In this document: positions 1,564 through 63,415 of the stretch, piece after piece
Layout: each line of letters starts with the position of its first letter
How positions within the stretch are numbered: position 1 is the first letter of the stretch
DNA from: Torpedo marmorata
Lineage: Eukaryota
Assembly: GCA_977017645.1 (NCBI GenBank)
Contig: OZ360223.1
Location: 15,996,001-16,060,000, forward strand
Length of the DNA: 64,000 bases
Direction of reading: 5' to 3'
Notes under the pieces: generated by a model
Database searches by the model: none
What the model was told of the DNA's origin: nothing
What the model saw: only the letters and a program-made list of their open reading frames with translations
Program-made: the position numbers and the translations under genes

Positions 1564-1624
1564 TGTGGAGTAACCAACTTCAAGCGACGTGAAAGATGCT
1601 TTAAATGTGATGCTCAGAAGCCTG
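1564..1624 (+). CDS. Gene 1 exon 8: RanBP2-type zinc finger, C-terminal half
   Basis: tag|TGT...CCTG|gtaagc; [20 protein letters not shown]; 61 nt, same length as gene 2 exon 8. Confidence 0.9.
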
Positions 1625-60600: not shown

Positions 60601-63415
60601 ACCTGTTCGCCTGTGCTCCTTTCCTACATTTTTATTCGGGCATCTGCCTGATTTTCGAAGGGCTCAGGACAAAACATTGCCTTTTACTGCCTGTAGATGA
60701 TGCGTGACCTGATGAGTTTCTGCAGCACGTATGTGTGCTGCACTCACACAACTCAAGTTCGAATCAAAAACATGAAATAAAAATGTTTTATTATTTTAAA
60801 GACAGCCAAACATTTGCATGCATAAGTGAGCTGTAATCTCCATCCTTTTGAAGAGAAATGGGGCAGTAAATCATGCTAAGCTGTTTTTGTTCTTTCTGAT
60901 AGTTAAATTTGGAACATCTTACTATATCGTTAGCAGATGGCTGTTTTGTGATGGTACATGTAAACAATCACTAATTTGGTTCTCGTTCTTTTGTTTATAT
61001 GAGCTATCTGTGTATGTGAGAAAATAATTTTAGACATTCTGAGTGTACTTTAAGCAATTCCTGGCTCAGAACAGTGAGTGCTGTAGTGTCCTTAAGAAAT
61101 CGTTGAGAAATCCAGCTAAGATTGTAAATTGGACGGAAGCCTTCACAAACCTTCTGGTCTTGACATGATGTACTTTGATTTACTTTCCAGTACAGAACCT
61201 GGTTGCATAATGTGGCTGCATTTTCTTTTAAAGTATTTGAACTGTTTCTTTTTCCTTTCATAAAGTCTCAACAAACTTCAGATCAAGTGAACCAGGATTA
61301 CAGTTACCTCCCACAGTCTGGCACAGATAACTACAGTCAGCATTATTCACAGGTTGGTAGTTCACCGTCAATATATAAGTATACACCGACTAACTTTGTA
61401 GCAGCTTTGGCAGTAAAGGAAAGGTGGATATCAATCACTCAAGCATAATGTCAGGTGTTAAACATACTCTGATGAATCAAATGACAGAAAGGAAAATGTG
61501 TAACTGTTTCAGTGATCATCTCCTAGAGCACCCCTTTGAAGGATCGAGGATATCAGTGATCACCCACGTGTGTGTATATATATGTATATGTAGCAGAGAT
61601 GAAATCCTTGTAAAGTTAGTTATTTTGCATAATCTTTGGGGGACCTTGTTCTAAATCTGGCAGTTAACTCTACTGTTGGTCTTGGGGATGAAAACACCTT
61701 TTCAAATAATTTGTACACAGAAACAGTTAATGTTGCTGTGAGAACATTTCTGGTATAATTAACGGACTCATTATTTGCCTCTAATGTTGAGGTTGTTATC
61801 TGGGAAGGATGCAACATTTATAATGACGACCAACAATCTTTATCATTAAAAATAAAGCAAAATCCAGCAGCTTTAGTCATCTTGTGCACTGAATTTTGCT
61901 GAGTCCAGTTTCAGATGCTTCCTATTTGTTTAGCTTGTGACCTTTCCAGTCCTTTTTATTAACCTTGAGTAAACCTGCAGAGGAAAGAATTCCGTATTTG
62001 ACGGCATATAAGACCCACGGGCATATAAGACCCCCTCCCCCATTTCAGCAGGGAATATTAAGAATTTTTTTTGTGTATTTATGGGTAAGCAGAATATTGT
62101 TAATTCAGTTCTCACTCACTTTGCTGTGCGGCTTCTCCTTGGCAGGCCGCCCAGCACCAGGGTACCCACCGGCAACCCGCAGATGTTGGCGAACGGGTTC
62201 CTCCTGCACCTCTTGCGCTACTGGCAGTGGCCGCCGTGGTCGGCCTTCTCACCAGGGGAAGTGAGCGGCGGCGGTGGCTCCGGAAAGCACTGGCCACCTG
62301 AGGGAAGGTGGCCCGCGAAGCTGCGGGCCCGCTTCCTGGACAGCCGCAGCACTTCCGCGGGCTTCTTGAATCTGGGCGAGTAGCCGGCGACCTGCTCAGC
62401 GGCCATCGCTCCCTCCCTGATACTGGGGCCAGGCGGCAATACCGGGCGGACAGCGGGGGATCCTTCCCTCCCTGATACCGGGGCCTGGCGGCAATACCGG
62501 GCGGACAGCGGGGGATCCCTCCCTCCCTGATACCGGGGCCAGGCGGCAATACCGGGCGGACAGCGGGGGATCCCTCCCTCCCTGATACTGAGCCACACAG
62601 CGACGATGATCACTGTCGGCGTTACTCACCATTATCACCCTAATTTCAACTTCGCATATAAGACCCGGGGGATATTTTTGAGCCAATTTTTTGGGGGAAA
62701 AAGTGGGTCTTATATGCCATCAAATACAGTAAGTGGAGAAAAGCCATTTTGGGGATGTTTGAAGAGCTGTCTCCAACATGCCAGTAACTATTTAAAGAGA
62801 GCATTGTTAGACTTGGGAGTGCAATTTGTTATTAAAGTTTTGTGCAATATAGTTTTATCAGACGTGCATTTTCATAGGGTGCAACAGTTCCAAATAACTC
62901 AGAATTATTTGCTAATATTTGGGGAAGAGAGAGTCAGTGGGGGAGAACAGTGAAGGGGTGGAGGAGCAGTTGTAGAATTCAGGTCCTCCTTTGGAAAATA
63001 CAGGAATCTTAAGTAGAAGGAAAAGATACATCAGGCTTGCACTTGAAAGCTTTATTGCCAGCTACAGAGCAATAACGATAAAATCCTGAAAATGGGTTGT
63101 TGTCTGGTCGTTTTGTCCAAAGATTGGCAACTGGCAAAGGTGCGAGGAAATGGATAATAAAACCTACAAATTTATACCTGTCCACAACATTGAGTTTTAC
63201 TTCACTGGGAAACGCAGGACGGTGCCTTGTATGTATTTTATGTACGGATATTCTGAAGTGCAGTCTTAATTAGAGTTCTTCTGTGTGCACCACACTAACT
63301 ATGAAATATGTGCAATCGGCACAGTACTCGCAGGAATACCAATACTTTCAACAAGGCTCTGTGGACCCCAGTCAACAGCCTCCTGTCACATACCAGGCAG
63401 CAGCTTCTCTCACAG
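39680..63415 (+). CDS. rbm5: Gene 2 (3'-partial, coding exons 2-14): RNA-binding protein 5
   Basis: Starts [18 protein letters not shown], matching the RBM5 N-terminus as recalled. Contains RRM1 ([10 protein letters not shown]...RGFAFVEF), RanBP2 ZnF, and RRM2 ending [14 protein letters not shown]; exons are phase-consistent. Confidence 0.9.
40947..42122. mobile_element. Second copy of the 4018-4704 Tigger-like MITE, interrupted by a Rex1-type LINE 3' fragment (about 40991-41489, minus strand)
   Basis: Colinear with 4018-4704 on both sides of the insert; right TIR GGATACCAGGGGTTTTACTG|TA. Confidence 0.82.
42656..42827 (+). CDS. rbm5: RBM5 exon 3 (RD/RE-rich)
   Basis: ttttgcag|A...GGT|gtaggt; [57 protein letters not shown]. 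Confidence 0.88.
44105..44327 (+). mobile_element. V-domain tRNA-SINE
   Basis: A box TGGCGTAGTGTT, B box GGTTCGAATCCC, V-like core. Confidence 0.85.
46051..46203 (+). CDS. rbm5: RBM5 exon 4: start of RRM1
   Basis: cttttag|CGA...GAT|gtaagg; [21 protein letters not shown]...[18 protein letters not shown]. Confidence 0.93.
46685..47105 (-). mobile_element. CR1 LINE 3' fragment
   Basis: [27 protein letters not shown]; 3' end similar to the copies at 3034 and 11010. Confidence 0.75.
47621..47693 (+). CDS. rbm5: RBM5 exon 5: RRM1
   Basis: tttatag|ATT...TCAG|gtgaga; [24 protein letters not shown](G). Confidence 0.92.
48451..48524 (+). CDS. rbm5: RBM5 exon 6: RRM1 RNP1
   Basis: ctctag|GT...CAG|gttgct; [24 protein letters not shown]; 74 nt. 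Confidence 0.95.
52042..52128 (+). CDS. rbm5: RBM5 exon 7: end of RRM1 and start of ZnF
   Basis: ttttgcag|AAT...AAG|gtattt; [29 protein letters not shown]. Confidence 0.94.
52509..52569 (+). CDS. rbm5: RBM5 exon 8: RanBP2 zinc finger
   Basis: atacag|TGT...TCTG|gtacgg; [20 protein letters not shown]. Confidence 0.93.
53495..54405 (-). mobile_element. Rex1/L2-group LINE 3' fragment with RT C-terminus
   Basis: [53 protein letters not shown]. Confidence 0.88.
54503..54568 (+). CDS. rbm5: RBM5 exon 9
   Basis: ttctcag|AG...GATA|gtaagt; (E)[21 protein letters not shown](T). Confidence 0.85.
54765..54925 (-). mobile_element. Degenerate V-domain SINE
   Basis: GAACGTACAAACTCCTTAC..GATTCGAACCC shared with the other copies. 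Confidence 0.65.
55529..55689 (+). CDS. rbm5: RBM5 exon 10: RRM2
   Basis: taacag|CT...GTG|gtgagt; [53 protein letters not shown]. Confidence 0.95.
56706..56803 (+). CDS. rbm5: RBM5 exon 11: RRM2
   Basis: ttgcag|GAG...AA|gtaagt; [32 protein letters not shown](K). Confidence 0.95.
57501..59611. mobile_element. L1/Tx1-clade LINE with 5' inversion (minus 57501 to about 58085, plus about 58088 to 59611)
   Basis: 15-bp TSD AATAAGAACTTGCTT (57486-57500 and 59612-59626); inverted part ends IIRKFL and forward part begins LWKG. Confidence 0.92.
59892..59979 (+). CDS. rbm5: RBM5 exon 12
   Basis: tgtcag|A...CAG|gtaaag; [29 protein letters not shown]; 88 nt. Confidence 0.93.
60183..60745 (+). mobile_element. 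Penelope-like element fragment (degenerate GIY-YIG endonuclease and 3' end)
   Basis: CTC CTC TAC ATC GGG GAG ACT = LLYIGET, followed by RLGDGFVEH and LPVANHFNS. Confidence 0.7.
61266..61352 (+). CDS. rbm5: RBM5 exon 13
   Basis: Polypyrimidine tract then cataaag|TCT...CAG|gttggt; [32 protein letters not shown] acceptor is uncommon. Confidence 0.78.
61992..62729. mobile_element. Tc1/mariner-superfamily (pogo/Tc2-like) non-autonomous element
   Basis: 27-bp TIRs CCGTATTTGACGGCATATAAGACCCAC / GTGGGTCTTATATGCCATCAAATACAG; TA on the right side. Confidence 0.78.
62409..62594. repeat. GC-rich 55-bp minisatellite (about 3.3 copies) inside the DNA transposon
   Basis: Unit CCCTCCCTGATACYGGGGCCWGGCGGCAATACCGGGCGGACAGCGGGGGATCCYT starting at 62411, 62466, 62521 and 62576 (partial). 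Confidence 0.9.
63325..63415 (+). CDS. rbm5: RBM5 exon 14
   Basis: CACTAAC branch site near 63293, then gcacag|TAC...ACAG|gtaggg; [30 protein letters not shown]. Confidence 0.75.

Follow-up and report, generated by a model that had tools for sequence, protein, structure and literature searches.

A 64-kb window of the Torpedo marmorata genome (assembly GCA_977017645.1, contig OZ360223.1, positions 15,996,001 to 16,060,000 of the forward strand; coordinates below count from its first letter) contains two intact RBM5-family paralogues arranged head to tail on the plus strand, of which the upstream one (gene 1) is examined here as a candidate RBM6 and the downstream one (gene 2) as RBM5. The exons were located by direct reading of the sequence, with a scripted check, as a six-frame self-comparison was swamped by shared repeats, and they are numbered as in RBM5. 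The window opens in intron 7 of gene 1, whose 5' exons lie outside it, and covers 18 exons (8-25, 1564-31635) with AG acceptors at 18 of 18 and GT donors at all 17 internal positions; the reading frame stays open across 637 codons, with no internal stop, and ends in a TAA at 31635. Gene 2 is represented by 13 coding exons (2-14), from an ATG at 39680 to 63415, which encode 409 amino acids (aa) with no stop in the window and show GT donors throughout and AG acceptors at all 12 exons beyond the start-codon exon. Exons 8, 10, 11 and 12 have the same lengths in both genes (61, 161, 98 and 88 nucleotides, nt), and the intron phases coincide at exons 8-14. Across these four exons, nucleotide identity is 66-70%, the two genes encode the same residue at 97 of 134 codons and disagree at 19 of 35 four-fold sites, while blastn found a match in none of the six pairs of homologous introns (8-13). 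Exon divergence and the lack of intron matches therefore indicate an old duplication, as the initial annotation had proposed for two head-to-tail paralogues about 5 kb apart with equal exon lengths, and the dissimilar introns give no sign of recent gene conversion. The stop codon of gene 1 and its first candidate polyadenylation signal (AATAAA, 31835..31840) lie about 5 kb upstream of a CpG-rich stretch at 36.6-37.2 kb (36600..37200, plus strand; GC content 0.56-0.62, observed/expected CpG ratio 0.56-1.09), in which gene 2 presumably has its promoter and a first exon without coding sequence.

The domain order of the RBM5/6/10 family, namely two RRMs, a RanBP2 finger, OCRE, a C2H2 finger and a G-patch, is found in gene 1 by Pfam matches to its Leucoraja orthologue (P0004) and to window exons 17 and 24, with RRM1 taken from the orthologues. 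Within the window, exon 8 (1564..1624, 61 nt) encodes the latter half of the RanBP2-type zinc finger (matched by Pfam PF00641 in the orthologue), exon 9 (4849..4908, 60 nt) a linker, and exons 10 (5878-6038) and 11 (6676-6773) RRM2, including the D in VQLD and the L in AKSLK that are shared with RBM6. Exon 12 (7403..7490, 88 nt) contributes an AIAAAQWS segment that is unrecognisable in bony RBM6, and exons 13-16 (7938-8018, 9109-9202, 12542-12615 and 17509-17587) a low-complexity linker collinear with P0004. The complete OCRE, recognised by Pfam, and a KEKE stretch are encoded by exons 17 (17675-17766) and 18 (18947-19117), followed in exons 19 (19428-19574) and 20 (20707-20793) by DMERWAK and ESAAADAG, the start of the segment through which RBM5 binds U2. 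Exon 21 (27629..27820, 192 nt) carries a 5' extension, an acidic stretch and the C2H2 zinc finger, exons 22 (28458-28532) and 23 (29248-29345) the helix-loop-helix (limits of the element as given in PMC13041897), and exons 24 (30092-30221) and 25 (31509-31635) the full G-patch, the C-terminal helix (C-helix) with the equivalent of Y799 at 31581, and the stop. The coding exons of gene 2, likewise on the plus strand, lie at 39680-39696, 42656-42827, 46051-46203, 47621-47693, 48451-48524, 52042-52128 and 52509-52569 (exons 2-8) and at 54503-54568, 55529-55689, 56706-56803, 59892-59979, 61266-61352 and 63325-63415 (exons 9-14), and the gene continues beyond the window.

Close counterparts of both genes were detected in other cartilaginous fish. 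Gene 2 matches a Narcine bancroftii protein (P0127) at 98.0% identity across 409 aa, and a search with its exon 10 returned nine shark and ray proteins at 96-98%; by sequence, gene 2 is the cartilaginous-fish RBM5, its orthologues grouping with bony RBM5. Gene 1 is 93.7% identical to P0004, a protein labelled RBM5-like that stands for a cluster of 58 sequences, and its exon 21 matches Amblyraja, Leucoraja, Heptranchias and Callorhinchus at 86-95%, with RBM5 and RBM10 next at about 70% (among the best 120 of 1114 matches). All four gene-1 orthologues bear the database name RBM5 or RBM5-like, the mislabelling as a second RBM5 that the initial annotation had foreseen. There is a hint that the orthologues of gene 1 and gene 2 lie on one chromosome in Amblyraja and in Heptranchias. 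RBM10 is a distinct third gene in five shark and ray genera, Pristis, Pristiophorus, Rhincodon, Scyliorhinus and Carcharodon (P0138, P0147, P0148, P0158 and P0179). In Carcharodon, the gene model joins RBM10 to E1-enzyme domains, in keeping with the linkage of RBM10 and UBA1 reported in PMC4624187. The existence of these RBM10 orthologues fits poorly with the view put forward in the same source, based on the elephant shark, that the duplicates of the USP11 region are younger than the shark split.

Proteins of RBM6 type were collected with a stretch of rodent RBM6 (best 150 of 677 matches) and then with coelacanth RBM6 (best 120 of 628), which is the least diverged row of this type and which, as a query, added the proteins of paddlefish, gar, bichir and bowfin. 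The coelacanth, paddlefish, gar, bichir and bowfin proteins (P0245, P0374, P0375, P0256 and P0457) are publicly named RBM5 or RBM10-like, and 19 further RBM6-type representatives all nest in ray-finned (6) or tetrapod (13) clades. No chondrichthyan protein of the conventional RBM6 type occurs among the best 120 of 628 matches to coelacanth RBM6. An RBM6-RBM5 fusion model (P0232) was excluded, and the tetrapod or teleost labels of some tree rows were inferred from the tree.

Individual characters separate the two genes. The N-terminal motif DY[RK]DxDYR is present in 3 of 3 gene-1 orthologues, 5 of 5 fish RBM6, 4 of 5 shark RBM10 and 60 of 78 bony RBM10, and it is absent from all seven gene-2 orthologues and all 99 bony RBM5, that is, from each of the 106 RBM5 proteins checked (rows without an N-terminus, five fusion models and eight unclassified rows were left out of the count). 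As far as these sequences indicate, loss of the motif joins gene 2 to RBM5 and sets gene 1 apart. The D and L of RRM2 are common to gene 1 and RBM6 and missing from 184 bony RBM5 and nine gene-2 proteins, and together with the N-terminal motif these two residues favour an RBM6 identity for gene 1. Six alignment columns are exclusive to gene 1 and RBM6, eight to gene 2 and bony RBM5, one to gene 1 and gene 2, and six to gene 1 and RBM10. Like RBM5, gene 1 belongs to the length class of about 840 aa, and the two agree in the order of domains and in exon lengths and phases; but gene 1 lacks the states specific to RBM5 (10 protein letters not shown), and it is gene 2 that occupies the RBM5 slot. 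The likeness to RBM10 lies in ancestral states (20 protein letters not shown, among others), in the exon-21 extension and in the N-terminal motif. The motifs quoted in the initial annotation were all found at the expected places, but one of them, QTQLNRG, is not confined to gene 1, having a second occurrence in gene 2 (55639). Its use of RBM10-type motifs (16 protein letters not shown) and of the exon-21 extension as evidence for RBM6 did not hold, because gene-2 orthologues and/or RBM10 also carry them, which makes them ancestral; PLxGL, given there as a mark of RBM6, is likewise present in sawshark RBM10 (SPLRGLV). On this sequence comparison, the motifs first taken as diagnostic are mostly ancestral and no proof of orthology.

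For phylogenetic analysis, 48 rows were aligned over 528 hand-chosen columns, with blocks unalignable in RBM6 and in shark RBM10 masked, and 16-28 rows were used per tree; a separate set comprised 50 rows on 290 columns, and the outgroups included P0246, whose neighbours in the ESM Atlas are assigned to Chordata. In the tree without RBM6 (28 rows), gene 1 was sister to gene 2 plus bony RBM5 (support for that pair 95/90), the clade of all three reached 100/98, and shark and bony RBM10 stood apart from it (96/95). It is scarcely credible that gene 1 is instead the RBM10 orthologue or a relocated copy of RBM10, even though the two have six exclusive columns and the N-terminal motif in common: the distinct RBM10 genes of the five shark and ray genera group with bony RBM10, and the union of gene 1 with RBM10 appeared in 0 of 1000 bootstraps wherever counted and was rejected by the approximately unbiased (AU) test (p-AU 2e-9 and 9e-5, both <1e-4). 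The alternative raised in the initial annotation, that gene 1 might be the only RBM10 orthologue, fails on the same grounds. When seven RBM6 rows were included (26 rows), gene 1 grouped with RBM6 (90/89) and gene 2 with bony RBM5 (90/91). Under a mixture model, 896 of 1000 bootstraps united gene 1 with RBM6, compared with 50 that placed RBM6 outside, 31 for RBM6 with bony RBM5, two for gene 1 with gene 2 and none for gene 1 with RBM10. The same grouping of gene 1 with RBM6 ranked first among 21 fixed topologies under LG and among 12 under C20-PMSF, where the guide tree was that of a rival and hence unfavourable. In simulations under LG, the observed margin (at least 2.5 log-likelihood units) was reached in 22 of 25 replicates generated with gene 1 plus RBM6, compared with 1 of 25 for one of the two nearest rivals and 0 of 25 for the other. 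In the best trees, gene 1 thus forms a clade with bony RBM6 that excludes RBM5 and RBM10, with bootstrap values of 30-90% depending on sampling, and the place of RBM5 is held by gene 2, with the 90/91 support and the eight exclusive columns given above.

Several results weigh against this placement. Bootstrap support for gene 1 plus RBM6 fell to 818 of 1000 with automatic trimming, 771 with ray-finned RBM6 only, 527 under JTT with no outgroup, 481 with coelacanth as the only RBM6 and 304 with tetrapod RBM6 only, and in the 290-column set the Shimodaira-Hasegawa-like approximate likelihood ratio test (SH-aLRT) gave it 58.8. The AU test retains RBM6 as sister to RBM5 (p 0.06 and 0.18). The top shark matches of coelacanth RBM6 are gene-2 orthologues, and P0004 is not among its best 120 of 628. 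The shared N-terminal motif is a retained character that lies outside the window, in a region that is full of repeats in RBM6; one of the six columns exclusive to gene 1 and RBM6 adjoins a gap; and RBM6 also has exclusive columns with RBM10 (4) and with bony RBM5 (3), so that column counts taken alone are weak. The terminal ELE, tried as a marker of gene 1 and RBM6, was dropped since 45 bony RBM5 carry it.

The retained alternatives differ in where they place RBM6. Gene 1 could be a separate ancient paralogue on the RBM5 side that survives in cartilaginous fish alone, with the true RBM6 having branched slightly earlier or later and been lost there. RBM6 was indeed placed outside gene 1 plus RBM5 in 664 of 1000 bootstraps with tetrapod RBM6 only and in 453 under JTT without outgroups, and the AU test retains this arrangement (p 0.60 and 0.32). 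A pull of RBM6 towards the root is, however, the expected long-branch artefact, and it is confined to 50 of 1000 bootstraps under the mixture model, while the observed margin arose in the one replicate of 25 mentioned above when RBM6-outside was simulated. This history would call for an additional duplication and for two losses that complement each other, and would leave gene 1 in RBM6's position all the same; it is considered unlikely. A tandem RBM5 copy specific to cartilaginous fish, with gene 1 as sister of gene 2 and RBM6 separate in bony fish or lost here, is more improbable still. In the aligned blocks, gene 1 is closer to gene 2 (79-80%) than to bony RBM5 (72-75%), some states of the OCRE region are common to gene 2 and basal gene 1, and the AU test with free re-optimisation retains the pair (p = 0.08). 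The pair was nevertheless recovered in only 2-26 of 1000 bootstraps across all six bootstrap analyses, its fixed-topology p-AU is 0.02-0.09, its single exclusive column compares with eight for gene 2 plus bony RBM5, and the N-terminal motif kept in gene 1 is absent from gene 2 and bony RBM5. Gene 1 as a lineage-specific sister of gene 2, together with a conventional RBM6 further upstream, had been named in the initial annotation as an outcome that would overturn its reading, and apart from the AU value of 0.08 the sister grouping found little footing here.

Gene 1 is, with these alternatives weighed, very probably the cartilaginous-fish orthologue of RBM6. This reading, which corresponds to the undegenerated RBM6 proposed in the initial annotation, is the best supported by the combination of the best tree, the N-terminal motif, the D and L of RRM2, the tandem position and the absence of a conventional chondrichthyan RBM6 from the best 120 matches to coelacanth RBM6. 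As to position, gene 1 lies directly upstream of gene 2 (RBM5) on the same strand, and this corresponds to RBM6 because RBM6 followed by RBM5 is the human arrangement, which arose by duplication and subsequent sequence change according to PMC10445532. In the history that this would imply, RBM10 split off first, and a tandem duplication of the RBM5-side gene, still before the lineages of sharks and bony fish separated, then produced RBM6 as the upstream and RBM5 as the downstream copy. In bony vertebrates, RBM6 would have evolved faster, acquiring a long N-terminus of DYR/DFR repeats and losing IH2 and the greater part of the G-patch, with a further loss of half the OCRE and of the DMERWAK segment in tetrapods, and RBM6 of sharks, rays and the chimaera would have stayed slow and complete throughout.

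Branch lengths and domain content follow this outline. From the node of gene 1 and RBM6, the branch to the window gene measures 0.14 changes per site, that to coelacanth RBM6 0.85 and that to rodent RBM6 1.31. Relative to human RBM5, gene 1 keeps 14 of 14 OCRE aromatics, including tyrosines 470, 479, 486, 488 and 495, which bind SmN (PMC5127646), and it is identical at 108 of 160 positions of the U2-binding segment (RBM10 106-108, tetrapod RBM6 58-69), 10 of 15 in IH1, 8 of 8 in IH2, 36 of 47 in the G-patch and 13 of 17 in the C-helix. Position 470 is F in the Narcine gene-2 protein, in chimaera gene 1 and in 4 of 4 fish RBM6, and Y in the window gene. The Pfam G-patch score is 69-71 bits in gene-1 orthologues and 68-70 in RBM5, and the intact OCRE and canonical G-patch first reported for gene 1 are thereby borne out; neither the degenerate G-patch and IH2 of derived RBM6 nor its expanded DYR/DFR N-terminus (460-580 aa) is found, the N-terminus being 117 aa in the Leucoraja and Heptranchias orthologues. 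With tetrapod and human RBM6, gene 1 has in common its location upstream of RBM5 on the same strand, its sister position in the best tree, the D and L of RRM2, the N-terminal DYxDxDYR, the C2H2 finger, IH1 and the C-helix. In tetrapod RBM6, by contrast, the repeat N-terminus measures 460 aa or more, only half of the OCRE is left, the DMERWAK segment is missing, IH2 is eroded and the G-patch is weak or absent (32 bits or no match, against 69). RBM6 of coelacanth, bichir, paddlefish, gar and bowfin, about 53% identical to gene 1 in the aligned blocks, resembles it in the full OCRE (53-60 bits), the DMERWAK segment, the C2H2 finger and the C-helix, but a Pfam G-patch was matched in none of the five, IH2 is lost or displaced and the N-terminus exceeds 500 aa. 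Since the OCRE is whole in coelacanth and ray-finned RBM6 and the G-patch is not, the decay of RBM6 appears stepwise, with the G-patch and IH2 first and the OCRE and DMERWAK later; the degenerate OCRE that the initial annotation had given for mammalian RBM6 is thus particular to tetrapods, in which half of it is lost, and not a feature of RBM6 at large. Between IH1 and a partly kept IH2, coelacanth RBM6 (P0245) also contains a 28-residue insertion resembling a second IH1.

Human RBM5 binds SF3B1 via its helix-loop-helix (686-711) and C-helix (799-815), and its G-patch positions and activates DHX15, as described in PMC13041897. Human RBM5 and RBM10 bind U2 through residues 544-703, and RBM6 lacks U2 and pulls down SAFB, according to 10.1101/2023.09.21.558883. 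In a 2026 preprint (10.64898/2026.06.30.735655), the G-patch of RBM6 is the sole DHX15-interacting G-patch without helicase stimulation, a failure whose cause is called unclear. At the sequence level, gene 1 has the RBM5-type elements of a U2/DHX15 repressor, namely the helix-loop-helix, the G-patch and the C-helix with Y799. By homology, its protein would sit on the branch-site-engaged U2 snRNP, held to SF3B1 by the helix-loop-helix and C-helix, its G-patch would recruit and activate DHX15, its OCRE would bind the tails of SmB/N, and the result would be exon repression as by RBM5 and RBM10. Because the OCRE tyrosines, both SF3B1 interfaces and the full G-patch are kept, gene 1 is likely still a U2-bound exon repressor of the RBM5 type, unlike human RBM6, for which the same sources report neither U2 co-purification (10.1101/2023.09.21.558883) nor stimulation of DHX15 by the G-patch (10.64898/2026.06.30.735655).

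RBM10 shows a complementary pattern of decay. In contrast to gene 1, shark RBM10 has lost its C-helix together with the second half of the G-patch: in 7 of 7 models from five species (P0138, P0146-P0148, P0155, P0158 and P0179) the G-patch stops part-way, scoring 30-33 bits and covering positions 3-30 of the 45 in the profile, and no C-helix was found. A Pfam G-patch was absent from 5 of 5 ray-finned RBM10 (P0141, P0143, P0163, P0178 and P0209), and that of lobe-finned RBM10 is whole in 5 of 5 (64-68 bits). By this pattern, the complete genes are RBM5 and RBM6 in sharks, RBM5 and RBM10 in lobe-fins, and RBM5 only in ray-fins. A tentative reading, for which the odds are put at somewhat less than even, is that jawed vertebrates resolved RBM5/6/10 reciprocally, cartilaginous fish keeping RBM6 and lobe-fins RBM10 as a second complete U2/DHX15 repressor, with lobe-finned RBM6 turning into a non-U2 protein and ray-fins losing the G-patch from both. 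Compensation between RBM6 and RBM10 is drawn here from three lineages and could be coincidence.

Other features of the window concern its introns. In intron 17 of gene 1, a near-perfect fold-back at 18359-18661 has arms of about 135-140 nt, ends 285 nt upstream of exon 18, folds at -215 kcal/mol (z -32) and has no second copy in the window; a fold-back element, a substrate for editing and an artefact of the assembly are possible explanations. Related remnants of a reverse transcriptase resembling that of long interspersed nuclear elements lie at about 12.7-16.5 kb (gene 1 intron 15), 21.9-27.0 kb (intron 20) and 57.5-59.6 kb (gene 2 intron 11), the latter two matching at roughly 80-90% in translated pieces. 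Intron 8 of gene 1 includes a 226-nt assembly gap (2808-3033) and an 18-nt tandem repeat (3274-3490) within a repeat remnant. Candidate cassette exons were noted near 50.6-50.8 kb and 51.77-51.88 kb in intron 6 of gene 2 (48525-52041); introns 5-6 of RBM5 are subject to regulated use. A scan of the window against Rfam gave no match.

No literature on a conserved shark RBM6 or on lineage-specific loss of the RBM10 G-patch was found in a search whose scope excluded subscription journals and gene-tree databases. The conserved shark RBM6 and the truncated shark RBM10 are accordingly regarded as new, whereas the tandem of RBM6 and RBM5 and its duplicative origin are known from PMC10445532. For annotation, a correction follows, as shark RBM6 and several fish RBM6 carry RBM5 or RBM10-like labels. 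Within a splicing family of relevance to cancer, RBM6 is the odd one out, and a slow orthologue with all interfaces intact would date the RBM5/RBM6 duplication before the split of sharks and bony fish. A complete shark RBM6 would represent a living 'before' state and make the change in RBM6's job addressable by domain swaps among natural proteins. If the proposed reading is true, shark RBM6 does the DHX15-activating job of human RBM10, and the RBM6 proteins of shark, coelacanth, paddlefish and tetrapods form a living series on which the losses that ended U2 binding and DHX15 activation can be mapped. The mirror-image decay of RBM10 suggests that the keeper of the DHX15 arm may depend on the lineage, which matters for fish models of RBM10 disease.

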